The position numbers and the translations under genes are program-made. 64,000 bases of DNA from Macrostomum lignano (Eukaryota): NCBI GenBank assembly GCA_002269645.1, contig NIVC01003539.1, positions 28,224 through 92,223 on the forward strand, read 5' to 3'. The notes below the pieces were generated by a model. It saw only the letters and a program-made list of their open reading frames with translations, was not told the origin of the DNA and did not search any database. Numbering within the stretch: the first letter of the stretch is position 1; each line of letters begins with the position of its first letter. Shown here in pieces: positions 29,011 through 64,000 of the stretch.

Positions 29011-29079
29011 CTGCGTGGATTCAGTTTGCCTAGCAACTAAATCTAATCTTAATTAGACAACCTTATCTTAACTTGATAG

Positions 29080-41085: not shown

Positions 41086-44000
41086 GCTAGGCCACCTAGC
41101 CAGAGGCTAGGCCTAGCCTAGGACTATTTCATCTTGCTGTTTAAGTACTAAGGCCTAGGCATAGTCCCTGCACCTAAGCACCTTAGTAAAAACGTTACTA
41201 AGTTATTGGTTCAGAACCGTGTTAGGCACTGTGTTAGGCAGGCCTACAAGGACAACTCAAGTAGCCAGCCAGCAGGCCTACTGGCTAGGCCCTACCCTAC
41301 TGATTTTGAAACTGGAATTTAGATGGATTTAATTCTGTCTATGACGTTTCCTGTAAAGGCTAGAATATTTAAATAACTTTAATTCTTTCATTTTCCTACA
41401 GATAAGATAGTTCCAGATCAATTTTTTGTTTTGGAACCAGTTCTTATTACAAGGTTAACAAAACAACAGTCATGCTCAGGCATGCTCATGCACCTGCATG
41501 TGCGATATTAGCTCGATATCGGGTCTGTATAAAAGCTAGCACTGGCATCACTGGCATCAATGTAGTTAAACAAAAGTTTTATGAAATTTTAATTCACTAA
41601 CAACTCGATGTTTTTTTAAACACAATTTATGTCGTTTTTTACAAATTAATGCATTAGCTGTTAAGAAATTTGTCTATAAAGCTTCAGCTTTATTGATATC
41701 TAAAAGATTCAATATTCAACTCATAGCCACTAAATTTTATTCTAGGTACACGTAGTATTGTATAAAAGCTACGTATTGTATAAAAGCTAAGCTATAAAAT
41801 TATAAATGCAAATTGATGATTGCACGCTTGTATGTATATGAACGGAACTTAAAGTGTATAAATCTGTGATTTTTACTTATACTATACTAATAAATCTTAA
41901 TTTTACTTAATAAGGTGATTTCATTTCATCCGAAGTCATTCGATCATATACTAAATATTTGGATGCTACATTCGTTCGTGGTTCGTTCAAGTAAAAACCA
42001 AGGATAATATAAAAATAACTAAACTGAAAGTCAAGGATACAAATTTCTTGGACATAAAATAGCTACATTGTTCAGGATTTGACTGAAAAATGTACACTCC
42101 CACAATCATGTTTTTTATTTGCATATATTAGCCTTGGTACACTTTGTAGTATCCTTCTTGAAGTATTGATTTGGCGGCCGTATACTTTATAACTGAAAAT
42201 TTATGTGTGAAAACTCACACAATATTTGAACGAAAGCACTATGAAACTTGCATGAAACAATTAAATTTGGCGATATAAACATTAATTGCAACCATGAAAA
42301 AGAGGTATATAATTTTTAAGAAAAGAAATTCATAATTTCCAAAGAAAGTAAAAATACATTTAAAATGAGCAAGAAGCAACATTACCTGCTAAATTTTTGT
42401 GTTGTCAAAGTCCCAGAAGAAGCAAACTAGATGCTGAAATATAGATTATTTTTATTTTGAGACAATACAGAAATATTTAATCAACAACCATGCAAACTCT
42501 TTGTAATGAAAAATAACTAAAGGATCAAGGAATAAAACTGTAAACATGACAAGAAAAAAACTATAAGTAAAAACATAAACATGAGATGACATGTAAATTT
42601 TTGGTGAATTATGAATGGATTTTCTTGATAGGAAAATTTATTATTAAAAAGTTAGTATTTTCTCATTAAAAATTCACAAAATGAAGCTGGGTAGTTGCAT
42701 TTCCATGCTACTTTTATACCTACTGAATTACAAGGAACTGGCAAGTATAGCCTGAGACTGCCTACAGCCAAAACCAGGTGTGTGTACATCCAGATGTTGT
42801 TGCCAGAAGGTCGCTTAAGGAAACAGAGTCGCAGTGCCCTACTAATAGGTAACTTCGCATTGGCGTTTTGTTGCGACCTTGCAATTTTCGTTACGCCACC
42901 ATTGTAATTTTTGTTAACTGGTTAAGTAACCATAGTAAAATTTCTATACATGTAAAAGGAAGTGATGTAATTACTCTGTATGTATATACGAGCGTAGAAT
43001 TACTTTTTCATGCAATAAATGTATGTGTGTCATGTTGAAAATTATCTAGAACAATTAGTTGACTTTAAGACATCATTTACTGACCTAATAAGTGTACATA
43101 TTGCTTCGAATTAAAGACGGCCTAATCAAATAAAATTTAATATTGTGGCCGAGTTACAGCCCACAGACATGCATCCAGATGGGGGCTAAGACGGATATTC
43201 TCTGAGTTAATCAACAAATCAGGGCAGATATAACCGTCTGAGCTAAACAGAATTAAATGTATTAAGATCGACATGCAAAGCTGATATGAAAGAAATCAAA
43301 GGTGGATTATGCACTCAATGTGCCATAATGCAGTATGTATACAGGTTACATATATACAGTTGGCTCAAGCTCAAGTAATTGAAGACACGCAGTGTTCAGT
43401 GATAAGAAAGAACTGTATATTTTGTTCATTGAAAAATTGCAATTCATTTTATGATTTTACACAAATTTAAATTTTGTGCCATATAGGAGCAAAGGCAGAG
43501 TGCAAAAAACGAAGTTCATAGCGAGGCTCGAGAAAATGATAACGATAAAAAGGAGTTTATTGTCATTTGATTAGCTTGTATAAAATGCATATCAAGTCAA
43601 TGCAAAATGCCAGTGGAAATTAAAAAAATCGATGATTTAGAATTTTGCTTATTACGTTCTTAAAAAGTGCAATCCTATATACTAAAAATGAGTTGTCTGT
43701 ATGTATGTATGTATATGGGTATGCGATTGATTTCAGAAAAAACGGCTCAACCGATTTTCTTCAAACTTGCATCATTCGATCAGAAATTTTCCTGGCACAG
43801 TACATGCATCTTGGCTAAGAAATTGCTCAATGTTAAAGGGATTAAATATTCGAAAAACACGCTTTTTTGCAAAGGTCAAGCAAAATTTTCGACTTGAAAT
43901 GCATTGTAAGAATGCTAGAGAAAAAACTGACTGACTGAATTTCAATTCTGATAAAGATTGCATCACAACAAGTTGAAAACAGTGCCGAAGAAATGCACAC

Positions 44001-44289
44001 ACGACTTGATTGAAATTGCGTAACCATATTGCTAACTCGAAGTGAGACTGATACTGGCTGACTGAGAAATTGATTATGTCATAACTTTTTACTCCAATTG
44101 ACTTGCTGTAAGAATTGAATTATAAGGGCCACAATTCATGTTCTCCAATTGAAAAGAGATAGCCCTGATGCGAACAGACTGGAATGCTAATGTAGCGACC
44201 TGGGTTCGAGTCTTAGAAGCGCAAAATAATTTTTTTATTAAAACACCTTAAAAACTAAAAAACTGCTAAACATAAAAAAAGCGCAATAG

Positions 44290-47200
44290 AAGAGCCACCA
44301 TGTCAAACCTAAAGGAGCCACCATGTCGAACATTAAAGAACCACCATGTCGAACATAAAAGAGCCACCATATCGAACATAAAAGAGTTACCATGTTAAAA
44401 ATTAAAGAGCCACCATGTCGAACATAGAAGAGCCACCATGTCGAACATAGAAGAGCCACCATGTCAAACATTAAAGAGCCACCATTTCAAACCTAAAGGA
44501 GCCACCATGTCGAAAATTAAAGAGCCACCATGTCGAACATAAAAGAGCCACCATATCAAACATAAAAGAGTTACCATGTCAAACATTAAAGAGCCACATT
44601 GTCAAGCATTAAAGACCCACCATTTCAAACCTAAAATAGTTACCATGTCAAACATTAAATAGCCACCATGTCAAACATTAAAGAGCCACCATGTCGAACA
44701 TAAAAGAGCCACCATATTAAACATAAAAGAGTTACCATGTCAAACATTAAAGAGCCACCATGTCGAACATTAAAGAGCCACCATGTCAAACATTAAAGAG
44801 CCACCATGTCGAACATTAAAGAGCCACCTTGTCAAATATTAAAGAGCCACCATTTCAAACCTAAAGAAGCCACCATGTCGAACATACAAGAGCCACCATG
44901 TCGAACATAGAAAAGCCACCATGTCAAACATTAAAGAGTCACCATGTCAAACATTAAAGAGCCACCGTTTCAAACCTAAAAGAGCCACCATGTTAAAAAT
45001 TAAAGAGCCACCATGTCAAACATAAAACAGACACCATTAAGAACATTAAAGAGCCACCATGTCAAATATAAAACAGCCACCATTTCGAAAATTAAGGAGC
45101 CACCATTTCAAAAATTTAAGAGCCGCTATGTTAAACATTAAAGGGCCACCTTGTCAAATATTAAAGAGCCACCATTTCAAACCTAAAAGAGCGACCCTGT
45201 CGAACATACAAGAGCCACCATGTCGAACATAAAAGAGCCACCATGTCGAACATACAAGAGCCACCATGTCGAACATAGAAAAGCCACCATGTCGAACATA
45301 GAAAAGCCACCATGTTAAACATTAAAGAGCCAATATTTCAAACCTAAAGGAGCCACCATGTCGAACATAAAAGAGTCACCATGTTAAAAATTAAAGAGCC
45401 ACCATGTCGAACATTAAAGAGCCACCATTTCAAACATTAAAGAGCCACCATGTCAAACATTAAAGAGCCACCGGTTCAAACCTAAAAGAGCCACCATGTC
45501 GAACATTAAAGAGCCACCATGTCAAACATAAAACAGACACCATGTCAAACATTAAAGAGCCACCATGTCAAACATTAAAGAGCCACCGGTTCAAACCTAA
45601 AAGAGCCACCATGTCGAACATTAAAAAGCCACCATGTCAAACATTAAAGAGCCACATTGTCAAACATTAAAAAGCCACCATTTCAAACCTAAAAGAGCCA
45701 CCATGTCAAACATTAAAGAGCCACCATGTCAAACATTAAAGAGCCACCTTGTCAAATATTAAAGAGCCACCATTTCAAACCTAAAGAAGCCACCATGTCG
45801 AACATACAAGAGCCACCATGTCGAACATTAAAGAGCCACCATATCAAACATAAAAGAGTTACCATGTCAAACATTAAAGAGCCACCATGTCAAACATTAA
45901 AGAGCCACCATGTCGAACATAAAAGAGCCACCATATCAAACATAAAAGAGTTACCATGTCAAACATTAAAGAGCCACCATGTCGAACATTAAAGAGCCAC
46001 CATGTCAAACATTAAAGAGCCACCTTGTCAAATATTAAAGAGCCACCATTTCAAACCTAAAAGAGCCACCATGTCGAACATTAAAGAGCCACCTTGTCAA
46101 ATATTAAAGAGCCACCATTTCAAACCTAAAGAAGCCACCATGTCGAACATACAAGAGCCACCATGTCGAACATAAAAGAGCCACCATATCAAACATAAAA
46201 GAGTTACCATGTTAAAAATTAAAGAGCCACCATGTCGAACATAAAAGAGCAACCATGTCAAACATAAAACAGACACCATTAAGAACATTAAAGAGCCACC
46301 ATGTCGAACATTAAAGAGCCACCATGTCAAATATAAAACAGCCACCATTTCGAAAATTTAAGAGCCGCCATGTTAAACATTAAAGGGCCACCTTGTCAAA
46401 TATTAAAGAGCCACCATTTCAAACCTAAAAGAGCGACCCTGTCGAACATACAAGAGCCACAATGTCGAACATAAAAGAGCAGCTATGTAGAACATAAAAG
46501 AGCCACCATGTCAAACATAAAAAAGCCACCATGTCAAACATAAAAGAGCCAACATGAAGAACATTAAAGAGCCACCATGTCGACCATTAAAAGAGCCACC
46601 ATGTCGAACATACAAGAGCCACCATGTCGAACATAGAAAAGCCACCATGTCGAACATAGAAAAGCCACCATGTTAAACATTAAAGAGCCAATATTTCAAA
46701 CCTTAAGGAGCCACCATGTCGAACATAAAAGAGTCACCATGTTAAAAATTAAAGAGCCACCATGTCGAACATTAAAGAGCCACCATGTCGAACATTAAAG
46801 AGCCACCATGTCAAACATAAAACAGACACCATGTCAAACATTAAAGAGCCACCGGTTCAAACCTAAAAGAGCCACCATGTCGAACATTAAAGAGCCACCT
46901 TGTCAAATATTAAAGAGCCACCATTTCAAACCTAAAGGAGCCACCATGTCGAACATTAAAAAGCCACCATGTCGAACATTAAAAAGCCAACATGTCAAAC
47001 ATAAAAGAGCCACCATGTCAAACCTAAAAAAGCCACCATGTCAAACATAGAAGAGCCACCATGTCAAACATAATAGAGCCACCATGTCAAACATTAAAGA
47101 GCCACCATGTCAAACATAGAAGAGCCACTATGTCAAACATAAAAGAGCCACCATGTCGAACATAAAAGAGTCACCATGTTAAAAATTAAAGAGCCACCAT

Positions 47201-47709
47201 GTCGAACATTAAAGAGCCACCATGTCGAACATTAAAGAGCCACCATGTCGAACATTAAAGAGCCACCATATCAAACATAAAAGAGTTACCATGTCAAACA
47301 TTAAAGAGCCACCATGTCGAACATTAAAGAGCCACCATATCAAACATAAAACAGACACCATGTCAAACATTAAAGAGCCACCATGTCGAACATTAAAGAG
47401 CCACCATGTCAAACATAAAACAGCCACCATTTCGAAAATTAAGGAGCCACCATTTCGAAAATTAAAGAGCCGCCATGTTAACCATTAAAGGGCCACCATG
47501 TCAAACATTAAAGAGCCACCATGTCGAACATAAAAGAGCCACCATGTCGAACATTAAAGAGCCACCATGTCAAACATTAAAGAGCCACCGGTTCAAACCT
47601 AAAAGAGCCACCGTGTCGAACATAAAAAAGTCAACATGTCAAACATAAAAGAGCCACCATGTCAAACCTAAAAAAGCCACCATGTCAAACATAGAAGAGC
47701 CACCATGTC
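44290..47709. repeat. 23-bp satellite GAGCCACCATGTCGAACATTAAA; resumes at 62436 to about 62545
   Basis: Well over 100 variant units. The register continues across the Polinton insertion. Confidence 0.97.
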
Positions 47710-47801
47710 AGTAGTATACGTTTTTTTGACACAAAGCCGATTTCCTTATGGCGAAATACATAGTAAGTACAGGCCCAAAAAAATGGCAGAGTCTGAAATT
47801 T
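47710..47801 (+). repeat. Left terminal inverted repeat (92 bp)
   Basis: Reverse complement of 62344-62435 with one mismatch. Confidence 0.97.
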
Positions 47802-48047
47802 GCCGTGCACGCAAACTAGCTTTTACGCAATGAATTAACCAATTAGCTGAATCACTTTTACGCAAACACCTGTCTATCCACCTAAATTCTATCCGCAATG
47901 AATGCAGCTAATTACAAGCCCAACCAAAATTCAATTTGACACAAAGCTTATTTCGCGTATAACTTAACGCATTTAAATTCTTCTTTTCAAGCAGTATTGT
48001 ATATTTCAACTAGATACAAACACAATTTGACGCACAAATTAGCGAGT

Positions 48048-48611
48048 TTACAAATATTGAGGCAGCACTCGTAAAACAAAATTGCGTAATTTAGCATACA
48101 AGTATCGAAACGAACCAGTGCGAATTATATTCCGTTTAAAAGCGCTTCGAATAAAACACTCTAGGTTTCCTCTGGTAGTCAACTTATGAAAAATATAAAA
48201 AATTACCCAAAATCCACAACTTCCACTCTGTGGGTCTTGGATAGCAAAGCGACTATAACACCAATTTTTCGAATTTCCACATTCTTTTCCTAGCCATTTT
48301 GCTATTCTTGGCAATGGTACTAGACCAAGAGAATCAAAATATTCACCAAGTCGTTTGCTACCGCGACCTGCTCGATGACCATAAACCCAAACGCATACCC
48401 AATGTTTTCCGGGCAGGTTGGAGACGTCAGTATTAACGATAAAAAAATAGTCTTTACCGTCTAAAGGTAAGCGTCTAAGTCCACCAACAAAGTTTTGAGG
48501 AAAAACACCAAGAAATACAACATTTAAAAAATGTGCGCACAATTTCGATACAACATTGCGAAGGAAGCGATCTGTTACACCACGATCTAGGATAGAATCA
48601 ATTACTTCCAT
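48048..48611 (-). CDS. Adenain-like cysteine maturation protease
   Basis: IVNTD...PGKHW (His), EYFDSLG (Asp), IQDPQSGSCGFW (Gln, Cys). Overlaps the MCP stop by 10 nt. Confidence 0.93.
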   Translation of the reverse strand: MEVIDSILDRGVTDRFLRNVVSKLCAHFLNVVFLGVFPQNFVGGLRRLPLDGKDYFFIVNTDVSNLPGKHWVCVWVYGHRAGRGSKRLGEYFDSLGLVPLPRIAKWLGKECGNSKNWCYSRFAIQDPQSGSCGFWVIFYIFHKLTTRGNLECFIRSAFKRNIIRTGSFRYLYAKLRNFVLRVLPQYL

Positions 48612-49924
48612 ACTGTGCCAGGAACAATGTCGCGAAGTTCAGTCAGTTGCAGTTGCTTGTCAAATATACCTCCAAATATGACGTTGTACACGGTACTAGT
48701 TGCAGCATTGAAGCGTAACTCTAGTTTTACATTTCCTTCCTTATACAGTTGCACTCCCCGTCCGACACCAGGTTCACTTCCAAGACTGAATGCAAAAATT
48801 GAGTAACCATTGGCGTAATCCAGCATATTAAATCCAATATCTCGTCCCTGTAGATAGATTCCAAGCTGTTGTAGCAAAAAATTATACTCTGTCACACAAT
48901 CATCTCCAAAGTTTGTCTGCAGCGGACGCGATGGTACCGAGTCTCCATTCACAAACACACCAATGCTGCTCACATTTGCATGCTCAAAGTTGAACGGATT
49001 TGTGTCCATGCTTCCATTGAATGCCTTGTTGCTTACGATTGCCATCAATAAAAGCCGTGGTACCCCACTAGGAAACAAATTTTCATGCGTATGGCTAGAC
49101 GATCCTCGGGGTATAGTAAACGTACCAAGGCTTAGACTTCGGTGCGGATATAATGCATTGTGACTTTTAAGTCCATGAGCATGTGCACTGATAACACTCG
49201 GCGAGGGTTGAACAAACCGCAATCGTAGTTCTGCACGCAAAAACTTGATCTCATAGTCTTTTAAAACCGCACCAGCTTCTAATGTTGACCCGCTCAGGAC
49301 AAATTTACTTTTTGCCGGTATGAGCTTGATCCGTAGTGGTGTCTTTGATAGTAGATACCGAGGCTGACGAAACAAATCCAAGAATAACGGCCCCGATACA
49401 GTGCACCGCCTATTGTTAGCAATGAGCGCCTGCCTCTTTGTTCGTCCATCGTTTTCACTTGTTGCATTCATTTTACCAGCTGTATCCTTGTAAAACCCCC
49501 ACGGCAGTAAACCAGCCTTCTGAGCTGTATGTCCATATTCCAGTAATGTAAGAAGCATAGCCTTGTATGGATACATAAAACTACCACCTTCAACTACAGT
49601 ATCGCCAATAGTAAATTGAACGTCCTCAAACAATGTTCCAATAACCAAATTATTCAAACAAACAAAATTTTTCGTTGCATCTATAGGTTCACCTTCACTA
49701 TCACTAACGCTGAAGCATACCGTGAGCACAGTTTCTTGTAGATCCAAATACAAATCGCCTGCAGGCACAACTTCAAATTCGATAGGTGATCCTTTTGTAA
49801 TACCATGTTGCGGTTGAATGTTAGTATATCGATTATCCAAAACACTAAACTGAACAGGACTTTGATCAAATAGCGACAATTCACTTTTAAGAGCAGCAAT
49901 ATCAGGTCCAAGCAAATGGTTCAT
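48602..49924 (-). CDS. Major capsid protein (double jelly-roll, Polinton hexon-like)
   Basis: 440 aa from ATG 49924. KSELSLF...P.Q...GSPIEF...DLYLDLQETVL, GPLFLDLFRQPRYL, FNGSMDTNPFNFEH and EGNVKLELRF recalled as Polinton MCP motifs. Confidence 0.88.
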   Translation of the reverse strand: MNHLLGPDIAALKSELSLFDQSPVQFSVLDNRYTNIQPQHGITKGSPIEFEVVPAGDLYLDLQETVLTVCFSVSDSEGEPIDATKNFVCLNNLVIGTLFEDVQFTIGDTVVEGGSFMYPYKAMLLTLLEYGHTAQKAGLLPWGFYKDTAGKMNATSENDGRTKRQALIANNRRCTVSGPLFLDLFRQPRYLLSKTPLRIKLIPAKSKFVLSGSTLEAGAVLKDYEIKFLRAELRLRFVQPSPSVISAHAHGLKSHNALYPHRSLSLGTFTIPRGSSSHTHENLFPSGVPRLLLMAIVSNKAFNGSMDTNPFNFEHANVSSIGVFVNGDSVPSRPLQTNFGDDCVTEYNFLLQQLGIYLQGRDIGFNMLDYANGYSIFAFSLGSEPGVGRGVQLYKEGNVKLELRFNAATSTVYNVIFGGIFDKQLQLTELRDIVPGTVWK

Positions 49925-49925
49925 G

Positions 49926-50384
49926 CTACTTTTCAAACAGACTAAAAAGTTTCTTGCTTGCAGTAGCAGTTCGACGTTTTCCTATACCACCGGTCTTCTT
50001 GCGTTTTCTTTTGTTCACGCGTCCCTTTCCACACTGTCTTGTTCGTCGTTTCTTTTGCCGTTTCTTCTTTCCTAAGCTTATAGCCACTCCACTGGTTCTT
50101 TTCCTTCGCTTTGGTCTCGAAACTGCAGTTGTATTAAACATCTCTTCGCTCGATTCTGTGTCCAAGTGACGCTTCCGACCCATACCAATTTTTGCTGTCG
50201 CACTTTTCAAATACTCCAGACCACGATCCAAGAAATCTTTCTTTGCGTTGCGTAGTACAGGATACACCAATCTGTCCGCCAAATTTGACAAAAAACCGTA
50301 ACCTTCGTAAACAGGAATGCCATATCCACCTCCACCTTCAGCAGATCTATTCGGACCAGAATAAAAAGCAAAAATAGGATCCAT
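49926..50384 (-). CDS. Basic putative virion core / DNA-condensing protein
   Basis: ATG 50384. Gly-rich GGGGYG...YEGYGFL head and a very Lys/Arg-rich C-terminus. Position between integrase and MCP. Confidence 0.7.
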   Translation of the reverse strand: MDPIFAFYSGPNRSAEGGGGYGIPVYEGYGFLSNLADRLVYPVLRNAKKDFLDRGLEYLKSATAKIGMGRKRHLDTESSEEMFNTTAVSRPKRRKRTSGVAISLGKKKRQKKRRTRQCGKGRVNKRKRKKTGGIGKRRTATASKKLFSLFEK

Positions 50385-50425
50385 TTCAACAGTCTTCTCT
50401 TCGTCATGCAATCCCAATTCATGTG

Positions 50426-51586
50426 TTACTTATACACTTTAGAAAATAGTTTAGCAGTCTTTGCGTCAAGATCATTTTCGTTTAACCACTGACTTCTTGA
50501 GATTGGCATACCTTTCCATTTTACTAGATACAGACGACTTCCATTTTTCGCTCGATCAGTTTCAATAACTTTTTCAATTTCATTAGGTGTTTCATCTGTC
50601 TCGTTTACCAACATTAGTTCCGCTTGGTTAAACCTTCCTTTCAGCACTTCAAATCCATCTTCAGGGTCCACTAATTCGTACATTGGCGGGTCTGTCAAGT
50701 GTACACGATGAATGCGATATTTTGAATTACTCCAAGTCGTAGTGTATCCTTTTTCAAATGTTCCTCGACGTCGTGTAATTCTAACCCAATCACCAACTTT
50801 AAATTTATTCTCATTCTTTTTAGTGTACGACTTCGCAAACATTTTGTCCCACAAAATTCCTTGTAAATGCGGGTCTGTCTCTACCCGTTTTGGTGTTTCT
50901 CCACTCAAGGATCGATGAGGACTAGAGTTGAAATTATCTTCCAATTGCGGTAAAATGTCAAACCATCGAGGTAAATTTTTTGCTCGAAAGTATCGTAATA
51001 GACGTTCCTTTAACGAGCGGATAAATCGTTCAGCCATGCTTGCCTTGTAATTGCTTTGGCTAACAAAAAATCGAACTCCTTCCTGTTTCAGCATTTGACG
51101 TGTAGCTCTTCCGAGAAACTCCATACCAGCATCACCTTGTAAATAAACAGGCTTAAAACCACTTCGAAAAATCTCTAGTAATACTTGACTAACTTCTGAA
51201 GGCTTCTTTGTACGCAATGGTCTTAGTCGTACAACTCTAGTAAAACAGTCGATAAGAACAAGTATGTAACGATAACCTCGATTTTCCGTCTTGTATTGAG
51301 GTAAATCTGCCAAATCGATTTGAAACTGAAACTTTGCAACTGGTGGCACACTAATTTTTGGAGTTGGAAAGTTTCGTCGTGTTTTTCGAAATAAATGATG
51401 CTCATTTGTTGATCGCACCCAATTATCAACTTCGCGCTTTGCAACTTTGTTCGTAATCTGTGGAAACTTTTTACGTACTTCACGAACAAGTATAGTCTTG
51501 TTACCACTAAATGAAGTAGGCCTGTTCAAGTTAAAAAAAGCATCCGTCAAAAATTCTTCAATTTCCTTACGCACTCGCTTCATCAT
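50426..51586 (-). CDS. RVE (DDE) integrase with C-terminal chromodomain
   Basis: FQIDLADL (D), YLQGDAGMEF (D), KASMAERFIRSLKERL (E). Chromodomain EIEKVI...YLVKWKGMP...QWLNENDL. Confidence 0.96.
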   Translation of the reverse strand: MMKRVRKEIEEFLTDAFFNLNRPTSFSGNKTILVREVRKKFPQITNKVAKREVDNWVRSTNEHHLFRKTRRNFPTPKISVPPVAKFQFQIDLADLPQYKTENRGYRYILVLIDCFTRVVRLRPLRTKKPSEVSQVLLEIFRSGFKPVYLQGDAGMEFLGRATRQMLKQEGVRFFVSQSNYKASMAERFIRSLKERLLRYFRAKNLPRWFDILPQLEDNFNSSPHRSLSGETPKRVETDPHLQGILWDKMFAKSYTKKNENKFKVGDWVRITRRRGTFEKGYTTTWSNSKYRIHRVHLTDPPMYELVDPEDGFEVLKGRFNQAELMLVNETDETPNEIEKVIETDRAKNGSRLYLVKWKGMPISRSQWLNENDLDAKTAKLFSKVYK

Positions 51587-51867
51587 CAGTTAGATTGATG
51601 CTAGTCGTTTGACAGTTGCAACAAAAGAACGAAGCCTCGATCGAATCTCCGTCAGTATCCTCGTTGTGCTCCTTTCCCAGAAACGGCACACATTCAGATT
51701 TTATGCAAAAAAACTCACAGAGACGAATCAAAAGTTTTTGGAAGATAGATGACATGGTTTGTCTTATTAAACTATATATTTTTCATAAACAAAAAATTAA
51801 CCTTTTTAAAAAGCTTATAGTGCTCGAATCAATTTTGTTAAAACGTAATCTGTAATTTTAAAACAAC

Positions 51868-52557: not shown

Positions 52558-52567
52558 TATATTCCTA

Positions 52568-52995: not shown

Positions 52996-53051
52996 TCTTA
53001 CAAAACAAATTCACAAAATTTTCTATTACACAATTAATCTTTGCTTATAAA

Positions 53052-54041: not shown

Positions 54042-54098
54042 TTTGAAATAAAACACAAACTAATATTGACAACAGTTTATAATTTGCTTATAATAATA

Positions 54099-54788
54099 TT
54101 ACACAAACTTTGCATCACATTCACGAGTATAGACAACTTGTTCATCACCAGAAAATATTCCTGTTCTCAATCGTAAAAAATCTGGTGTCACTTGCCGCAG
54201 GTCAATGAATAAATATGAAAAAGGTTTGTTATTTGTTGCGTCTTCATACACATTCACTAGAAACCTACTATTACGCGGATACATTTGTCGACCGAGATGT
54301 TCAACTGTGGTTCGATCGCGCACACTACGAGTTAGACAAATATAACTAGCTGATAAACTTCGCATGCGTGCTTCTGGATCAGACTTGTTAAAAAGACCTT
54401 GACAAAGGTACAGACAAGTCAAAGGGATATGATGCGCATGCTTTGTAAACATACTAGTAAATTCTGGCAACTTAGCAATCTCGCTTTGCAAGTCGTCAAC
54501 AACAACCAAATCGTGTGGTAAAAAACGATTAATCATCTGTGGTGTGAATTCGGGTACAAAAACAATAGGGTCAAGACCGCTTTTTTGCCAGCATGTTCTA
54601 ATTCGTTGTTGATCGTCTGGTTTCAAACTTGATCCATGGCACCAAACAAGACGGCACGGTTTTTTATCAAATAATTCTTTTCGTTCAGTCAACAAACGCA
54701 ACGTCCATTCAGTTTTACCCGAGTTTGAAGGTCCAGCAATAATAAATGTAGAATCGTGAGCTAGTTGCATATTGTATGGCTGCTGCAT
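54099..54788 (-). CDS. A32/FtsK-like genome-packaging ATPase
   Basis: ATG 54788. Walker A AGPSNSGKT, Walker B LVVVDD, HH..LTCLYLCQ, KPFSYLFIDL. Confidence 0.93.
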   Translation of the reverse strand: MQQPYNMQLAHDSTFIIAGPSNSGKTEWTLRLLTERKELFDKKPCRLVWCHGSSLKPDDQQRIRTCWQKSGLDPIVFVPEFTPQMINRFLPHDLVVVDDLQSEIAKLPEFTSMFTKHAHHIPLTCLYLCQGLFNKSDPEARMRSLSASYICLTRSVRDRTTVEHLGRQMYPRNSRFLVNVYEDATNNKPFSYLFIDLRQVTPDFLRLRTGIFSGDEQVVYTRECDAKFV

Positions 54789-54790
54789 TT

Positions 54791-55234
54791 TCAAGCACCA
54801 AAGCGTTGCTTAACTTGCATAACCTTGGTAACCAACTTCGCAGCTAGTTTTTCTTTCCAACCAGTAGACGGATCGTGGGCAATCTCTCGTGCACCAGATT
54901 CTAATAGCTTATCAGCTTTTAACCTCTCTTGCACGTCAGAATTTTTATCATAGGCCACGTCGTGAAGCATGCACAAATTGTCAAGCCGATTAATTCCTCG
55001 TTGTCCTTTTGCTAGCCTAGCTTGCAGTTGCGTACCTGGACCACAAAACTGATATCCGCCGGGTAAATGTGCTTCAAATGGTAAATGATTAATTAACCAA
55101 TTTACGACACCATAACCTTGTTGCTTTTTATTAATCTTTCTAATAGATTTCTTCTTTTTACGAATGCTCTTCTTTTTCTTTTTAAAACCTCGATCTTTCG
55201 CTGGAGACATTTTTACAACATATATTTTAGGCAT
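54791..55234 (-). CDS. Parvovirus-type phospholipase A2 domain virion protein
   Basis: Ca-loop GYQFCGPGT and catalytic NRLDNLCMLHDVAYD. Basic N-terminus followed by QQGYG. Confidence 0.9.
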   Translation of the reverse strand: MPKIYVVKMSPAKDRGFKKKKKSIRKKKKSIRKINKKQQGYGVVNWLINHLPFEAHLPGGYQFCGPGTQLQARLAKGQRGINRLDNLCMLHDVAYDKNSDVQERLKADKLLESGAREIAHDPSTGWKEKLAAKLVTKVMQVKQRFGA

Positions 55235-55325
55235 AAATTTTTAAAATTGCTTATAGTATTTACAAAGCTCTCGCATAGTGCACCAATCACCAAAGAAAAA
55301 AATCAGTTTATTATTATTATTATAC

Positions 55326-55808
55326 TTATTGGCCAGTGCTGCCAAAGCCGCCAAAGCCGCGCCGCTTGGTCGGCGGCTCAATCATCCGAATCGAATTGTC
55401 TGCTTCAGTCACATAGACTGAAGCAAGCACGGCCTGCTCCAGAACCAGTTGTGCAATACTGAGCCCGGCATAGTACTCAAAGTCTTCCGGACTGTAATTA
55501 AACAAGACTATACAGATTTCACCAGTATAGTCGGGGTCGATTACGCCACCGCCAACAAATAAGCTGTGCAGAGCCATGCTGGAACGTCCCGCTATCCTGC
55601 CATAGGTACCAGGCGGTAAGCGAATTTTGAGTCCGGTTCGCACACTCCGGGACTCGTAGGCCGGAATGGTACCATCGACGCCAGCGCAAAGATCATACCC
55701 GATCGACCCGACAGTTTTTCGGGTCGGAATCGTTGCCGAATCGTATAGACGTTCAACTAAAAGCTTACGATCAGTTAGTTGTTGTTGCTGCTGCTGCTCG
55801 GGATTCAT
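55326..55808 (-). CDS. dut: Trimeric dUTPase
   Basis: All five motifs present: GYDL, GRSS, GVIDPDYTGE, AQLVL, RGFGGFGSTG. ATG at 55808. Confidence 0.96.
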   Translation of the reverse strand: MNPEQQQQQQLTDRKLLVERLYDSATIPTRKTVGSIGYDLCAGVDGTIPAYESRSVRTGLKIRLPPGTYGRIAGRSSMALHSLFVGGGVIDPDYTGEICIVLFNYSPEDFEYYAGLSIAQLVLEQAVLASVYVTEADNSIRMIEPPTKRRGFGGFGSTGQ

Positions 55809-56132
55809 GTCGATTCTTGTAGCTGAAAGTTTAAAAAAAAGTTTTTTTTCTTGAAACATGAACGATAGCACTACATTTACGTCTACTACAAACACAAGCT
55901 TAGTCTTGAGAATCTAACTATAAAAAATATACTTTTTCAAATAATTAAACACAAAAAAGTGCTAAAATTATAATTTAAACGAATGCCGGTATCATTTATT
56001 TATTGTAAATAATGATCAATGAAAAAATTAATGATGGGTTACAGTCTTCTATAGCATGCTATTACTTTGTACAACAAAAGAGATCAGAGCATATTGTTAA
56101 TTAATTAGCCAAGTGCCAGTGTCCAAAGGGTA

Positions 56133-56431
56133 GCGAATTAATTGAACTTGTCCAGGATCGCTTCGTATCGAAGAAGCTTAGTGCAAGTTTTCTTTGTTGC
56201 ATCAAAAAAAACTTTCTGTTTTCGAGAACGAATGGACTGTATGCGCGAAAACACAAGTTGTCGCTTGTGTAAGACTCTTAAATAGTCTTGATGCTTTAAA
56301 CTGCTCTGTGCGGCTTTAGAAGCAGTACTGCTCCAGCTTTGCGACCGATTGAGACTGGAACTTTAAACGATTGCTGCTTAACCAGACCGGACCGGACTGG
56401 ACCGGACCGGACTGGACCGGACTCCCCGCGC

Positions 56432-56463
<32 letters not shown>

Positions 56464-57177
56464 ACCACCACCACCGCCGCCACCACCACCACTGCCGCCG
56501 CCCGCCCCCACACCACCGTGGGACGTATTTGTTGACAGTGTGCTTGCATGGCTTTTGCGATAAACGCAGAGCATCAAGTCTAGCTGCTCGATTGCTCTAT
56601 ATTGCCAATTACTACCTCGAGATTGAAAATTGTCAATTTTTATTAACAACTGATTAATAACGCGTGCGAACCAGTCATTGTAGGCCTCGGGAGATAACAG
56701 CATGTCACTGTTTGTAATCGTCTCATCAAATGATATTGTCGCAATGTTGGTATTAAAATAGACCGAAATGATCTCTTCGCTGCTCGAGCCATCGTTGTCG
56801 TCTGCTGCTGTTTTCGGTCGAAATAGTGTCACTTTCAAGTGAAAGCAGACTCTTATTAATAAACTGGGTGAGCCAATTTTTTCCAATATTTTAAATATTG
56901 GTTCTCTTAAAGACGCAATCAACTCGCCAGGAAGTAACTCGCCAGAGCTGTTGCCTTGTTGTTCAAGAGTGGGAGTAAATTCGACAAAATTTACCCGACC
57001 ACGATGAGCTGACTCGCGCAAAGCGATGGACCACCCATCTGGTGGGTTTTCGATCAGGTTTTGCAGCGATCCGGTCAGTAATCGTTGCGGTGAAAAACAA
57101 GCACCATGCGAGTGAGCATGCAGCTCGGCTTGATTACTGAACTTTTTTCTGCAGATTTGGCATTGTGCACGCGGCAT
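56133..57177 (-). pseudogene. Remnant of protein-primed PolB: C2H2 finger plus N-terminal domain, low-complexity junction, then a C-terminal-like fragment in another frame
   Basis: CQICRKKF...LHAHSH. YFNT...IDNFQSRGSNWQYRAIEQLDL resembles the GSGW region of Polinton PolB N-termini. After the (CCG/CCA)n-(GGACC)n patch, another frame reads LKHQDYLRVL...IQSIRSRKQKVF (about 56330-56133). No exonuclease or palm motifs anywhere in the element. Confidence 0.6.
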
Positions 57178-57400
57178 TGTGTGCACCTAGCTCGACAACG
57201 AGCGTATCGAGCATAATATTAATAGATGATCCGGTTTGTCATTTGCGGCTGTAAGAAAAATGATGATTTGGTTAGTTATAGGTATAGCTGACACGTTTAC
57301 TATTAGAGAAAACAATTGGTAAATAAATAAAAAAAGACAAAATGTTTGTAAAAGAATGCATCGCAACTGCGATTTGACAGCAATTGTTTACTTGTTAAGT

Positions 57401-57958
57401 TTAGTTATTAACAGAGATTAAAAAATCCTTGACATGGTTAAGAATATTATTCAATTCATGAGTGTTTTGAACGCCCATAATAACAAACTTTTTCGAAAAA
57501 AATATGTTACAAAAAAGCCTTGGTTTTGATGCTGATCTAACAGAAACTGCTTGTGGGAAATTTTCTGCATCGTATCCAACCAGATAATTCGAATAGTAGC
57601 CTGCATATCTTTTTAGACTAGAGAAACCGAATTTTGGCCAAAGATGACCAATAAAGCCGACATAGGTACTGCTCTGAATTTTTACTGAATCAAAATCTAC
57701 ACAATTAATAGTGTCGTTGATAAATCGTAAAACTGAGACTATCTGAGAATTTGATTTACAGCCATATATAGTTAGTTTTCCTGCTGGATAAAGTTGGATT
57801 TTAGCATTTGAATAAATTGTCTTTAGCATTGTTGGTCGGCTTAGGAATAGTTTGCAAAACCGGTTTCTGGTCTGTAGCTTCTGTTTGGTCTGCTTTAAAT
57901 CAAATTTTTCAAACGGGTGCAGCTTCAGACTCGCAGTAACTATTAATAGGACAAGTCG
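57401..57958 (-). CDS. TATA-binding-protein-like factor (about 185 aa open frame after a splice acceptor; first ATG only at 57829)
   Basis: Two TBP repeats: LIVTASL...FDLK...NRFCK...AKIQLYPAGKLTIYGCKS and KIQSSTY...YDAENFPQAV...KPRLFCNIFFSKKFVIMG. Compare TBP TALIFSSGKMVCTGAKS, KIQNMVG, YEPELFPGL and KPRIVLLIFVSGKVVLTG. Confidence 0.8.
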   Translation of the reverse strand, partial: RLVLLIVTASLKLHPFEKFDLKQTKQKLQTRNRFCKLFLSRPTMLKTIYSNAKIQLYPAGKLTIYGCKSNSQIVSVLRFINDTINCVDFDSVKIQSSTYVGFIGHLWPKFGFSSLKRYAGYYSNYLVGYDAENFPQAVSVRSASKPRLFCNIFFSKKFVIMGVQNTHELNNILNHVKDFLISVNN

Positions 57959-58168
57959 CTAAAACGGAAAATAAATAATAAGAAAAGTTAAACATGACTA
58001 TACTATCGTAAATTCTAATATTAAATTACAAAACCTGGTTAGCGTACAAGGAGTAGCAAAAAATGTTTTGAGCTTTTCCCTAAAAAATAATATTTCCCTA
58101 GCCAAAAATTTGATAAATATAGTGGAATAAGTTAGTTAAAACTTGGATAAAATTAGTCAAAAATTTTG

Positions 58169-59366
58169 TTACTCATCATCAGAGCTGCTGTACGAGTCGT
58201 CCGATGAAGACACGCTAGCTGTAGTAGCGTCCGCAGCAGCACGCTTTAAAAATGCTGTCTCCTTGGACGCTACCCTGGTTCCAGAGGCAGGTGTACTCAC
58301 CAAGATCTTTGCTGGTGGAGCCTCCACCCAGTCTGTGCCATCTGCACCAGCTTCGGCAGAATTGTTTTGCTGTTTTGCACCGCTGCGTTTTCGAACTTGC
58401 TTTTTAGGCGGCGGTTCAATAGAGGCTGGCGCTGCATTCGATGTAGTCGACTTCTTCGATACGGTGGTGGTAGACCGACGCTTTGCAGGTGACTTGGCAG
58501 GTGTCACCTGGCTTGAATTCTGCAGGCTTTGTTCATTTGCTTCTTCTTGCTCACAGGTAGATGTTGGGGACGGACTCCTGCTTCTAATTGCTGACTTGGT
58601 CGCGGGTAGGTGTGCAAGCACTCCCTTGAACATGTCGAGGCGCTGCAACATGTTGTCGGAAGATTCTATGAGTGTCAGAGAGCGCACAGCGAATGTAATG
58701 CGCCAGACGAGGCAGCCTTTTGGACAATACAAGCTCGTTGCTTGCACTGTCATTTGGTAGGTACCGCTGACACCTTTGAAATCGGAAATGGACACCTCCT
58801 TCCCGTGTGGATGATCGTTGCTGATCCTGATTGTGGCACAAGGGTAAGCAGGCTTTATAGCCAGCCATTGTTGAGGCACAAACTCGAGGACGTCGTTAGC
58901 ATGCTGATGAGCTGGTTTTGTTAGTCGTGCCAAGGGTCGAGCATCTTGAATCTCGTTCAACTTGACCGATAGACCTTTTTCGACTTGACTGCAAAACATT
59001 ATATAAATTATGAATATAGTTTCCTAAAATTAATTGTATAAATTTAATATGGTGCTCACCGGAGAGAGTGGAAGAGTTCCTTATCGCAGCTGTCTGGATG
59101 AAATTGGACACTTACTGCGTCGCGAGAGTCGTGTCTGCAAGACGGATGATCGAGCTCTGGCCTTTCTGCGATTCCACGAAAAAGCTCCATTGGAGCCTTG
59201 GTTTGCAATATAATTGGGTACCATTTTGTACACTCGATTGATGGTTTCCACGCAATAGATCGAAACTGGCAGGACGAACCAGTCGTGGTTGTAGACTGCT
59301 CTCCAACGTAAAAATCGGACTCGAGTCGGAGCGTACAATTGACTCCGTCTTGATGCAAGCTGCCAT
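58169..59366 (-). CDS. Spliced gene, probable OB-fold single-stranded DNA-binding protein with acidic tail
   Basis: 71-nt GT-AG intron 59059-58989 joins ORF 59056-59379 in frame to ORF 58169-58999 (CG/T = Arg). PIILQTKAPMELFRGI resembles the T7-like viral SSB motif. Ends SSSDDSYSSSDDE. ATG 59366 needs one extra base at the 59310-59314 run. Confidence 0.6.
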
Positions 59367-60059
59367 GTCTTACAAGCAATTGAATATAGTATTTCTTTTG
59401 CTGTAATGATTGAGCTCATGAAAAATTGACCATTTCGGGTCTTGTATTTATAGCAAGCTTTGCATGCTGTTTGTGAACTAGTAAACAAATTTAATTGTTG
59501 CGTGCTGATTAAGACATTGTTGCGTGCCAAAGGTGGCATAAGTTTCTAGGGTGGGTTGCATGATTAGGTCTAATTTTACGCAAATGTAGGTTGATATTTT
59601 ATACAATAAAATTAATGAATCTTAGGCACACTAGTTATAAATTTGCAAGAGTAACACGATGGCAAGCGTTTAATAAGAAGACTGCTGGTTGCTGCTTCAT
59701 TAGATTGGTTTTGTTCTCAAGTAGAATGTAATTAAAATATTTTGCGACTTGAAAAATTAGCAATCTTGGATTTTAGAGTAAAAATAAGCTGCACGCGGTG
59801 CTATGAAATTAATTTATTGAAAGTTTTGCTTGCATGTTGGAATTTTTTAGCTCGCACGGTGACAAGAGATTGCTTGAGTAACCTATATATAGAGTGTTAC
59901 TTTTCAAACAGAAAAAGGTATAGTTGTAACTCAGCTTTTGCAGTCCTATATTGAGCAGAAGCTATATAGAGTTACACTATCATGCTGCGACGCGCAGCTT
60001 GTTGGGACTATAATGACTGCCGCTGCTATAACCGCATGCAGTCAGTGCAGTTGACACAC

Positions 60060-60770
60060 AAATGCTGTTTGGACTAAGCTAAATTACTGTGTTGAGACAG
60101 TTAAGCTGGACCACGGCTAAATCACTATTGATACGGTTAATTGCTACTAGACCCATGGCTAAATCACTGTACGTTGAGACGGTTAAGCTGGACCACGACT
60201 AAATCGCTGTACGTTGAGACGGTGGTTAAGCTGGACCATGGTTATAAAACTGGACGGGTGGTTAAGCTGGACGACTACAGCTAAAATTACTGTTGAGTCA
60301 GTTATGCTAGACCACAGCAGCCAAATCACAGTTGAGGTAAAGCTGACCATAGCTAATTCTCACTGTTGAGACGGGTGCTGCTGCTTGGCTCACAGCTAAA
60401 TAACTGGACAGTTAAGCTAATCGGACTACAGCTAAATCCCTGTTGAGACAGTTGCCTGGACCACAGCTAAAATCACTGTTGAGGCAGTTAAGTCTGGACA
60501 ACAGCTAAAATTACTGTTGAGACAGTTAAGCCTTGACTATAGCTAAATCATCGTTGAGGTAGTTAAGCCTGGACTATAGCTAAATCACTGTTGATGCAGT
60601 TTTAAGCTAGACCACAGCTAAATCATACTGCTGAGGCAAAAAAGCCGGACCACGGCTAAAAACTGTTGAGGCAAAAGCTGGACCACAGCTAAATCATACT
60701 GTTGAGGCAAAAGCTGGACCACAGCTAAATCATACTGTTGAGGCAAAAGCCAGACCATGGCTAAAGAAAC
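60060..60770. repeat. Array of about 18 diverged 34-42-bp units with an internal palindrome
   Basis: Consensus CTGTTGAGRCAGTTAAGCTGGACCACAGCTAAATCA containing AGCTG-N5-CAGCT. Confidence 0.9.
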
Positions 60771-60927
60771 GTATGAAAAAAAAATTATTTGCATGGATTA
60801 ATAATTTTTGTTTAATGATGACTGTACAAGATATTGACTTTATATTGAATTAAATAATTTCAATAAATGGCGAATAAAATTGAAAGAATTTTTTAGAATA
60901 ATGAATTTATAGAGATTATATTATTGA

Positions 60928-61566
60928 TTACAGACTTGTTTGATATATACTAAAAGAGCAATTACTTGGACACATTGCTGGCAAAATTTTATGAAGAGTT
61001 AGAAAAAATGTCTTTTTAAGATAGGTCCCAATATTCAAATACTTGAGTTGTATTACAGGTCTTTGTAATTCTACTTGGTAGAAGCCTGTGCTCATTTGAG
61101 AGACTTTTACAGACTTGATGTCCTTCTGTACAATAATTGGCGAGTTTAGCAGCGGTTGAACTTGGGTAGAAATAGCAATTGATGATGATGGTGTTTCAGT
61201 TGCTGTCGTTGGTTTGGTACTTGTAGGCTTACTGCAAGTTTGCTTTGTTGGGTCATTGTAGCTGGTTGGTGATGGTGGTGGTGGTGCATACTGCAGTTGG
61301 TCAGTTGGTCGTGGGTTCGATTGCTGCCTAATTGACTGAATAACATCAGTTCTTGTGTAAATGCGATCTAGCTCAGTTGTCTGTCTCTCGACATGAATCG
61401 AGGTTACTCTGGCGAGAGATGTAGAATATGATGCTCTTGCAGCAGAATTGGATGTGGTGGTGTCGTGGCAAATGCGTTTGCACTGATCTGGAGGTGGCCG
61501 CGTGAAGAAACCATTCTTGAATGCTATAATAATGGATAAGATGAGGGAAATTTGGTATAGGTGCAT
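60928..61566 (-). CDS. Orphan 212-aa protein with signal-peptide-like N-terminus and Thr/Pro/Ser-rich middle
   Basis: MHLYQISLILSIIIAF, CKRIC, PPPP/TKPTT-rich stretch and CPSNC. Clean ORF on the same strand as all element genes. Confidence 0.55.
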   Translation of the reverse strand: MHLYQISLILSIIIAFKNGFFTRPPPDQCKRICHDTTTSNSAARASYSTSLARVTSIHVERQTTELDRIYTRTDVIQSIRQQSNPRPTDQLQYAPPPPSPTSYNDPTKQTCSKPTSTKPTTATETPSSSIAISTQVQPLLNSPIIVQKDIKSVKVSQMSTGFYQVELQRPVIQLKYLNIGTYLKKTFFLTLHKILPAMCPSNCSFSIYQTSL

Positions 61567-61584
61567 GTATACAATGTATATAGA

Positions 61585-61810
61585 AACTGAACTAGCAGAG
61601 AATCAGTCTAAACAGAAACCGAACTAGCAGACAATCAATCTAGAAATTCTGAACTAGCAGAGTATTAGTCTAAACAGAAACCGAACTAGCAGAAAATCAA
61701 TCTAGAGACTGAACAAACAGAGGATCGGTCTAAACAGAAACCGAACTAACAATCAATCTAGAAACTAAACTATAGCGAACAGTCAATCTAAAAAAGAAAA
61801 CTGAACTAGA
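61585..61810. repeat. About 30-bp degenerate tandem repeat upstream of the orphan ORF
   Basis: AACTAGCAGA.AATCA.TCTA units. A GTAAGA donor-like site lies just upstream on the minus strand (about 61828). Confidence 0.75.
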
Positions 61811-62343
61811 GTAGGTGATTATCTTACCTTGTTTAACATAGCGCTCGGCCAATTCCTGCTGACGTGATCGCTTCATTTCACTTAAGATGTAAGTATAGTT
61901 GAACAAGTAGTATAATGTAAACTTGGTTTAAGTTATTTAATATTTTCTGTGTCAGTGTGTTCGTATATATATATAGTATAAAGAAGAAGCATGTTGACGC
62001 AGTTGTTGACATAGTATCTGTAAACCATCTGCTCAAGTTGGTGCAAAAATTCTATAGGCACTCAAGAATAGATCATTTACTATCTTTCTTCAAAAGGGTG
62101 ATAATATTCACAAGTTTTCAATATTTCAAAAACACTTGAAATGTGTGAATAGCTTTGGAGTAAATTTGTCTTGAATGGAATCCTTTGAAGTGTGTTTGTG
62201 TCACCATTGCTAGAATCGGTTACTTGTATTTTGGACAGGTGGATATGCAATTCGTCTGAATAATCACGTTGCGTAAAAGATATTTAGCGTGCACTTGGAA
62301 TTTCAGACTGCGTGCACATGGAATTTCAGACTGCGTGCACATG

Positions 62344-62435
62344 AAATTTCGGACTCTGCCATTTTTTTGGGCCTGTACTTACTATGTATTTCGCCATAAG
62401 GAAATCGGCTTTGTGTCAAAAAAACGTATACTACT
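62344..62435 (-). repeat. Right terminal inverted repeat (92 bp), preceded by extra copies of a 23-bp unit (62296-62343)
   Basis: Ends ...AAAACGTATACTACT. Subterminal TGGAATTTCAGACTGCGTGCACA is repeated. Confidence 0.97.
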
Positions 62436-62639
62436 CATGTCGAACATAAAAGAGCCACTATGTCAAACATAAAAGAGCCACCATGTCAAACATAGAAGAG
62501 CCACTATGTCAAACATAAAAGAGCCACCATGTCAAACATTCAAGATATCCAATTTCAAATGTAAAGGTATAAAGCGCCATGCCAATTTAAAGGAGCCACT
62601 ATAAAGCTAAGGAAATTGTCGCTCTAGCTACTTATTGTC

Positions 62640-63195
62640 TGGATGGTTGCTATTTGGGGATGCTATCTATCTTGGGGATGCTTGCTATTTGGAGGATGCT
62701 TGCTTTCTGGGGGATGCTTGCTATCTGGGAATGCTTGCTATCTGGGGATGCTTGCTATCTGGGGGATGCTTGCTATCTGGGGATGTTTGCTATCTGGGGA
62801 TGCTTGCTATCTGGTGGATGCTTGCTATCTGAGGGATGCTTGCTATCTGATGATGCTTGCTATCTGGGGATGCTTGCTATCTGGGGTATGCTTGCTATCT
62901 GAGGGATGCTTGCTATCTTGGGGTATGCTTGCTATCTGAGGGATGCTTGCTATCTTGGGGATGCTTGCTATCTGGGGGATGCTTGCTATCTGCGGAATGC
63001 TTGCTATCTTGGGATGCTTGCTATCTGGGATGTTTGCTATCTGGGGGATGCTTGCTATCTGGGGGATGCTTGCTATCTGGGGATGCTTGCTATCTGGAGG
63101 ATGCTTGCTATCTTGGGATGCTTGCTATCTGGGAAATGCTTGCTATCTGGGAGAATGCTTGCTATCTGGAGGATGCTTGCTATCTGGGGATGCTT
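62640..63195. repeat. 18-19-bp minisatellite GATGCTTGCTATCTGGGG inside the Helitron
   Basis: Direct tandem units. Confidence 0.95.
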
Positions 63196-63345
63196 GTGGT
63201 CTTGGGAAGATTTCTTATTGCAATTCACTTTCATTGAGCAGTTTGTCTGTTGTCTTTGTGAAGGATTTTTTGGCTGTCTTTTTGTTAATTGTAGAGAACA
63301 GAGATTCTATCCAGATGTCCCCCATCGGGGGGCGAAGATTGCTAG

Positions 63346-64000
63346 TCCAATATACTAAAAATGGTCTGTCGGTATGTGTGTGTGTGTATGTGTGTGTGTG
63401 TGTGATTGATTTTTAGCAAAAACGGCTCAACCGATTTTCTTCGAACTTGCACTGTTCGATCAGAAATTTTCCCGTGACAGTACATGCATCGTGGCTAAGA
63501 AATTGCTTGATGCTAAAGGGATTAAATATTCGAAAACATGCTTTTGCAAAGGTCAAGCAGCTCTTTCGACTTGAAATGCATCGTAAGAATGCTAGCAGAA
63601 AACTGACTGGTTGAATCTGATTCTGAAATAGATTGCATCACAATACACTTTATTTCGTCTGTGTACTGGCTGAATTTGACACTCAATTGAATTGCGTCAC
63701 AGCTTTGAGTGTGAAAGCATAGGCAGTACTGAATTTATATTACTAACCATATTGTAAACTTTCATAGACACTGGTACTGACTTGCCTAAGAAATTGATTA
63801 TGTCATAACTGCTTCGTGAGACTTTTACTCTACCTGACTTGTGTGAGTGTTGAATATATAAGTGGTACAACATCACTGATAACTTCGATGAGAGCTAGCC
63901 TAGAGCTGAACAGACCAGACTGCTAATGCAGCGACCTAGGTTCGAATCTAAGTAGTTTTAAAAGTAGTAGTGTAAAAATTTTTTATTAAAAGTTTTATTA
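63346..64000 (+). mobile_element. Second, head-to-tail copy of the same Helitron family (runs off the right edge)
   Basis: TCCAATATACTAAAAATG start directly after the CTAG. Colinear but diverged similarity to 43673-44240. Confidence 0.78.

Follow-up and report, generated by a model that had tools for sequence, protein, structure and literature searches.

Head-to-tail Helitron junctions in bats and plants have been cited as rolling-circle products (PMC5876387; PMC2267711). At the maize r1 locus, Helitrons that meet head to tail at CTAG/TC were read by Du et al. (2008) as consecutive insertions, with the A/T at the 5' end of a resident element as one of two routes (PMC2267711), and maize Helitrons are described as favoring insertion near or inside other Helitrons (PMC3288121). 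Very long Helitrons are reported to be rare and to result mostly from nested transposable elements (PMC12001565). For Polintons, the size range of 13-25 kb and the target-site duplication (TSD) range of 5-8 bp used below are taken from work on nematodes (10.1101/2023.08.22.554363). Here we describe a locus in Macrostomum lignano at which a Polinton lies in the satellite of a non-autonomous Helitron (copy 1), which is followed immediately by the 5' arm of a second, related Helitron (copy 2). The locus forms the right-hand part of a 64,000-nt stretch of contig NIVC01003539.1, the whole of which is hereafter called the window. We propose that three stacked events explain the arrangement, namely a resident Helitron, a related Helitron inserted at its A/T edge, and a Polinton inserted into the satellite of the latter; we assign this explanation a probability of roughly 0.7.

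Ends and composition of the host Helitron

A sequence-only reading of the window had proposed a polymerase-defective Polinton nested within a tandemly arrayed Helitron. The Helitron boundaries it gave, an A/TC start at 43673, a hairpin-CTAG end at 63345, and another TC start at 63346, proved exact: the 5' boundary of copy 1 is A43672/T43673C43674, and its 3' boundary is the CTAG at 63342-63345, with T63346 directly after. Copy 1 in its occupied form spans 19,673 bp; removal of the Polinton and one 6-bp TSD leaves 4,941 bp, of which 4,083 bp (83%) are satellite (23-mer plus 18-mer), in agreement with the earlier description of a 4,941-bp element made mostly of two satellites. The parts are arranged as a 5' arm of ~612 bp, the 23-bp satellite, the Polinton, a few further monomers, a 100-bp spacer, the 18-bp satellite and a 150-bp 3' end, with the following coordinates:

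43673..44285, plus strand: 5' arm of Helitron copy 1; TC start after a host A, (TGTA)n microsatellite, conserved blocks common to copy 2
44286..47703, plus strand: 23-bp satellite, left block; ~149 monomers in register, with one 24-bp step
47704..47709, plus strand: left TSD, CATGTC
47710..62435, minus strand: Polinton/Maverick of 14,726 bp, with minus-strand genes
47710..47813, unstranded: left terminal inverted repeat (TIR); 104 nt, starts AGTAGT
62332..62435, unstranded: right TIR; 104 nt, ends ACTACT
62436..62441, plus strand: right TSD, CATGTC
62442..62539, plus strand: 23-bp satellite, right remainder; register continuous with the left block
62641..63196, plus strand: 18-bp satellite; ~31 copies
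63319..63345, plus strand: 3' end of Helitron copy 1; 5-bp-stem hairpin at 63319-63332, CTAG at 63342-63345
63346..64000, plus strand: 5' arm of Helitron copy 2; a diverged relative that the window end truncates ahead of any satellite

The TC start with its AT-rich 5' motif occurs just twice in the window, at 43673 and 63346. Insertion between A and T without a TSD fits copy 1, whose bordering bases are A43672 and T63346, the latter being the first base of copy 2. The 3' hairpin has a 5-bp stem (CCCCC/ATCG/GGGGG) and ends 13 nt before the end of the element. When both strands of the 64 kb were scanned for a GC-rich 5-bp hairpin followed by CTRR/T, four sites were found, one of which abuts the second TC start; because this site ends exactly before that TC, the junction at 63345/63346 is not attributed to chance. 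The flank upstream of the second 5' end is unrelated to that of copy 1 (best local match, 15 nt), and the similarity of the two copies begins exactly at TC.

No RepHel open reading frame (ORF) was found in the Helitron parts, where no frame exceeds 160 aa; one frame of 115 aa is present, and the rest are read-throughs of repeats. Subterminal inverted repeats were likewise not found between the ends of copy 1 (no shared 11-mer with at most one mismatch, and no exact match of at least 10 nt); a Helentron/HINE assignment was rejected on this ground. The ends are the canonical TC and CTAG. The 5' motifs had no matches in public metagenome contigs or in viral contigs. The reading of copy 1 as a canonical-type, non-autonomous, satellite-bearing and non-coding element is supported by these features.

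Insertion of the Polinton into the satellite

The two TIR arms are 96% complementary over 104 nt, and their first 84 nt are identical. The flanking hexamer CATGTC is common in the satellite itself, being found 89 times among 149 monomers. A register test led to the rejection of a chance TSD: excision of the Polinton together with one CATGTC restores the exact 23-bp register, and the resulting junction monomer differs from the reference monomer by one mismatch. We regard the duplication as real because the empty form regains this register despite the frequency of the hexamer in the array. Together with the intact Helitron ends, the register-restoring TSD bears out the nesting of the Polinton within a satellite-bearing, non-autonomous Helitron that the sequence-only reading had put forward.

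Divergence of the two Helitron copies

Copies 1 and 2, the two units visible in the window, were compared over the 5' arm. Pairwise alignment of the arms gave 464 matches and 106 mismatches, and in a MAFFT alignment 154 of 578 columns differed. Divergence was uneven, at 15% over columns 1-290 of the alignment and 38% beyond them, with several multi-base gaps; clustering of this degree was reached in 0 of 10,000 permutations. Since twins from one rolling-circle event would begin identical and decay evenly, the clustered and uneven divergence points to subfamilies, and the alignments fit a view of copies 1 and 2 as related but diverged subfamilies (73-81% alike over the 5' arm) rather than rolling-circle twins. 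A tandem array in the rolling-circle sense, as first proposed, is not supported by arms that differ in this way. The CTAG/TC junction between the copies is exact, with zero host bases between, and a blast search found no other copy of the copy 1 3' end in the window, hence no further unit upstream of 43673. Helitrons insert at A/T, and a resident Helitron offers an A/T at its own 5' edge, where insertion yields a CTAG/TC junction; by itself, such a junction is no proof of a rolling-circle array.

Deletion within pPolB and gene content of the Polinton

The Polinton carries the features of its class: TIRs, a 6-bp TSD, a length of 14,726 bp, an integrase (rve above cut-off) and a major capsid protein with homologues. 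The polymerase gene, in contrast to the open integrase and capsid frames, has lost its middle. Four pPolB proteins (P0121-P0124), all carrying Pfam DNA_pol_B_2, were used to search the window by tblastn. Residues 2-172 of P0121 (1,299 aa) matched 57108-56554 and residues 1260-1295 matched 56217-56110, with no match between; the matches of P0123 and P0124 were limited to their C-terminal ends, and that of P0122 to residues 6-46 (88% identity with the N-terminal remnant across 41 residues). By this comparison approximately 1,000 pPolB codons, including those for the polymerase domains, are missing, and the Polinton is a deletion derivative rather than an autonomous member; 'polymerase-defective' in the sequence-only reading was therefore correct. 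The N-terminal region of pPolB has been described as a terminal-protein domain (PMC11161782). Defectiveness as such is ordinary, because most vertebrate copies are defective too (96% of vertebrate Mavericks; PMC8097293).

P0122 and P0117 are records named Macrostomum lignano, and P0122 shows that a related pPolB with polymerase domains is on record for this species. The gene model P0117 (PAA86599.1), 42-63% identical, has a like layout of pPolB N-terminus plus C-terminus, which may mark another deletion derivative of separate origin, or else an error of splicing in the gene model. P0116 was rejected as a spurious hit of the remnant, since it is a repeat protein from bacteria that tblastn did not match anywhere in the window, and an ESM Atlas comparison of the remnant gave nothing clear.

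The Pfam scan covered 17 Polinton frames. The genes and gene remnants are as follows:

48048..48638, minus strand: probable adenain-type maturation protease; Pfam Peptidase_C5 E 0.042, below cut-off, with His/Asp/Cys-like motifs seen by eye
48602..49924, minus strand: major capsid protein in an open frame of 440 aa; 113 homologues match in full length, and several of them carry the name F54H12.2-like
50426..51589, minus strand: open frame for an integrase of retroviral type that bears a chromodomain; Pfam rve E 4.5e-8, Chromo E 1e-6
52568..53044, minus strand: ORF with an adenovirus pX-like C-terminal part; Pfam Adeno_PX E 2.9e-6
53052..54059, minus strand: 335-aa ORF, possibly a minor capsid protein from its position and size alone; no Pfam or PHROG match
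54099..54809, minus strand: probable packaging ATPase, from Walker A/B-like motifs seen by eye; no significant Pfam, PHROG or PDB match
54791..55240, minus strand: parvovirus-type phospholipase A2-like ORF; Pfam Phospholip_A2_4 E 3.6e-9
55326..55913, minus strand: dUTPase; Pfam dUTPase E 2e-29
56104..57177, minus strand: pPolB remnant with its break near 56300; the N-terminal part and the final 40-80 codons remain, and the middle with the endonuclease VII and polymerase domains is gone
57401..57829, minus strand: TBP-like ORF; Pfam TBP E 2.2e-7, ESM Atlas 0.93 to TBP clusters (Nucleocytoviricota, archaea)

The F54H12.2-like label is one that we take to be a marker of Polinton capsids. Against viral contigs, the capsid query gave eight pattern matches and no confirmed relatives, and the TIR tip gave no matches. 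The TBP-like ORF was considered as a novelty and dropped, TBP-like genes being already listed for midsize eukaryotic linear dsDNA (MELD) viruses (PMC8502044, section 3.4).

In the right third of the Polinton (58169-61602, minus strand), the ORFs at 58169-59023, 59056-59545 (two frames) and 60928-61602 have no family match. Two degenerate internal arrays are present, a 36-40-mer at 60078-60765 and a 32-mer at 61582-61772. A 22-nt motif with the core TTTTCAAACAGA occurs three times by ORF boundaries (49924-49945, 51881-51902 and 59895-59916) and is possibly a transcription signal.

Copies and contexts in contigs from sequencing runs

Assembled contigs from sequencing runs were used to look for further copies. 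Twenty of the 24 runs listed, from 7 studies, contain 0.65-0.95 of the words of 52600-62560. Contigs of four runs, one per study, were compared with 47640-62640, a range that ends short of both Helitron ends and of a single-copy control; the loose ends considered are six per run (353 further were found), and seven joints were found beyond those considered. In all four runs the Polinton body was covered by long, near-identical contigs (for example, 4,508 bp with one difference). Relative to the minor-variant joints considered (6, 5, 6 and 4 per run), the median depth of the Polinton contigs was 9.4, 8.6, 9.9 and 4.0x, which suggests that several near-identical copies exist. Among the variants considered, seven substitution sites show just the non-window letter in at least two of the four runs (91 further rows), and three single-base indels show just the non-window form in at least three (5 further rows); these variants imply that the Polinton of the window is very close to, yet not identical with, the commonest form. 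The minor-variant joints lie mostly within the right third (58169-61602), and contig depth rises across 60666-62168.

In one run, X9, two contigs carry ~130 nt of non-satellite DNA at the Polinton TIR tip, and an 18-nt piece of this flanking DNA does not occur in the window; all other loose ends considered are satellite-region ends. The satellite itself has a summed depth of ~2,200-3,900x the Polinton depth. Contig loose ends in all four runs resemble the join of 5' arm and satellite (by eye against 44260-44285) and the 18-mer, so that the modules 5' arm-satellite, satellite-spacer and spacer-18-mer occur in other copies. The depth of the satellite together with these loose ends indicates that the host Helitron family is very abundant and mostly without a Polinton. 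Satellite-only joints from 47676/47702 to 62436 are present in contigs of all four runs; they were rejected as an empty allele, as any family member yields such joints.

None of the contigs considered crosses the pPolB break near 56300 or spans the composite, and the depth at the two junctions of TIR and satellite cannot be read from them. Contigs over 55034-56264 are no proof that most copies lack pPolB, because they join the dUTPase to the pPolB tail and are expected in full-length copies too.

A second context came from a protein record. P0114 (UniParc UPI0007A14F58; 1,879 aa) matches the pPolB N-terminal remnant at 98.9%, the dUTPase at 100% and the 52476-51952 ORF at 100%, and has no polymerase domain. 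These three ORFs of the Polinton are fused in it to a tandem pair of Gypsy gag-pol repeats, and the Gypsy parts are without a match in the window. P0114 is thus a chimeric gene model, an annotation artefact, and implies that the same Polinton stands in another context, either at a second locus or in a haplotype with a later insertion. The TIR flank in X9 and the context of P0114 together favor spread of the Polinton family by its own mobility, although they bear on neither the number nor the linkage of the junctions of the composite itself.

Surroundings of the locus

Positions 1-37444 of the window hold minus-strand host genes with small exons split by many minisatellites, approximately one family per intron. 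Among the exons are a cNMP-binding match at 28070-29020 and a weak UCH match at 34562-35140. Two short, diverged duplications (38248-38621 and 36943-37232; 120 nt at 84% and 72 nt at 81%) link an AT-rich block with the preceding intron, and GC content falls from ~50% to ~35% at 38 kb.

Discussion

In the explanation that we favor, a Helitron of one subfamily (copy 2) would have been resident, its 5' TC preceded by a host A; copy 1, a non-autonomous element of a related subfamily, would then have inserted into that A/T by means of RepHel made elsewhere, giving A/TC...CTAG/TC without duplication; and an integrase would have put a young Polinton into the 23-bp satellite of copy 1, leaving the 6-bp TSD. 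The Polinton is considered young, and the Helitrons older, because the TIRs are identical over 84 nt and the Helitron arms are 15-38% diverged. Entry of the Polinton after copy 1 had reached its site would need no long-cargo step, and the one locus fits entry before or after. Further copying of the pPolB-deleted Polinton would need polymerase from another copy; that the deleted element itself spreads to new sites in this way is possible, although we hold it doubtful.

Several observations weigh against a stack of three events. The hairpin of copy 1 is weak (-5.4 kcal/mol, z -0.24), its stability being no better than that of shuffles, and the link between the 5' and 3' parts of the family rests on a single locus and on module-level contig ends, the 3' end lying outside the contig comparison. 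An empty allele of this exact insertion site was not seen in the contigs of the four runs, and the satellite-only joints derive from other family members and are not provably of this locus. The non-satellite TIR flank was found in one of the four runs among the loose ends considered, and at 90% likeness may belong to a diverged relative. Finally, a contig depth ratio is not equal to copy number, and the comparison was made without a single-copy control.

The junction between the Helitrons is what an old, decayed head-to-tail dimer from one rolling-circle event, entered much later by the Polinton, would also present: it is an exact CTAG/TC without a host base, of the type cited as a rolling-circle product (PMC5876387, PMC2267711). 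Such a dimer would have decayed evenly, whereas the 15-38% divergence with its multi-base gaps, strong clustering and intact terminal motifs resembles constrained subfamilies, and the window shows no third unit upstream; we therefore judge the dimer improbable. The host Helitron could instead be a chimera, in which the 43673 arm and the 63345 end come from different elements through satellite recombination or nested insertion. No full-length second copy is visible, and nothing else in the window matches the 3' end, as a chimera would allow; yet the 23-mer is the same, and its register unbroken, to the left and right of the Polinton, contig ends show the same modules in other copies, and a pair of arrays within a single non-autonomous rolling-circle element is known from oyster (PMC7492417), all of which makes a chimera very unlikely.

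A further question is whether the defective 14.7-kb Polinton has been copied to other loci as Helitron cargo (19.7 kb in all) by rolling-circle transposition, which would explain the near-identical copies. Both Helitron ends are intact, this Polinton copy is unable to make its own polymerase, maize Helitrons reach up to 39 kb (PMC6431247), and the main Polinton contigs are a median 8.6-9.9x deeper than minor-variant joints in three of the four runs and 4.0x in the fourth. That depth can, however, be lifted several-fold by karyotype alone, M. lignano being described as a hidden polyploid with variable chromosome number (PMC5704211, PMC12869490). Moreover, the integrase frame is open, other family contexts exist in the TIR tip on non-satellite DNA (X9) and in P0114 beside Gypsy, and no contig considered spans the deletion near 56300, so that other copies are not necessarily defective. 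Helitron cargo transport is physically plausible, yet nothing at the locus requires it, and it is currently disfavored: we consider it highly improbable as the source of the near-identical copies, and we have as little expectation that some of those copies share the TSD and satellite register but differ in their outer flanks.

The stacked insertions thus form a nesting that is real and well defined but ordinary, and the elements are additions to known types; the Macrostomum Polinton and Helitron family are apparently undescribed. The locus is a clear-cut example of one mobile element nested in another and a good marker, with an exact TSD, exact Helitron ends and a datable young Polinton. If the composite were mobile, defective DNA proviruses would have a way to multiply without polymerase or integrase, and animal Helitrons would move ~20 kb.

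Comparison with known systems

The literature searched, which did not extend to subscription papers, supplements or repeat libraries, contained no description of Helitron-borne transport of a Polinton, nor of this Macrostomum element. The maize r1 Helitrons are the nearest parallel for the junction, as they too meet at CTAG/TC without a host base. The maize pair is dissimilar, whereas the copies described here, which come from an animal, belong to related subfamilies (73-81% over the 5' arm) and are non-coding, with a Polinton inside the first of them (PMC2267711). Oyster Cg_HINE elements share the 5' microsatellite, the central tandem arrays (two in some), the 3' palindrome and the want of coding capacity; unlike copy 1, in which none were found and the ends are canonical TC/CTAG, they are Helentrons with subterminal inverted repeats (PMC7492417). 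Heli1Xen1 has the same TC/CTAG ends and rare very long copies that arise from nested elements, but in copy 1 it is a Polinton, nearly complete, that is nested (PMC12001565).

The Polinton itself resembles animal Polintons and adintoviruses in its size (within 13-25 kb), TIRs, TSD (within 5-8 bp), integrase, capsid, and phospholipase A2-like and pX-like genes (PMC8502044, 10.1101/2023.08.22.554363), and shares a TBP-like ORF with related MELD viruses, for which such genes are listed (PMC8502044, section 3.4). It departs from them in its clean internal pPolB deletion and in having the phospholipase A2-like and pX-like parts in separate ORFs (PMC8502044). As in Halocafeteria, where virophages and polinton-like viruses lie inside mobile elements and near Helitrons, an integrating DNA virus is found here within a mobile element; the Halocafeteria case concerns a protist, the nesting there is in loci rich in Mutator-like elements (MULEs) and long interspersed nuclear elements (LINEs), and the available part of that report describes no Helitron-borne transport (10.64898/2026.07.28.741278).

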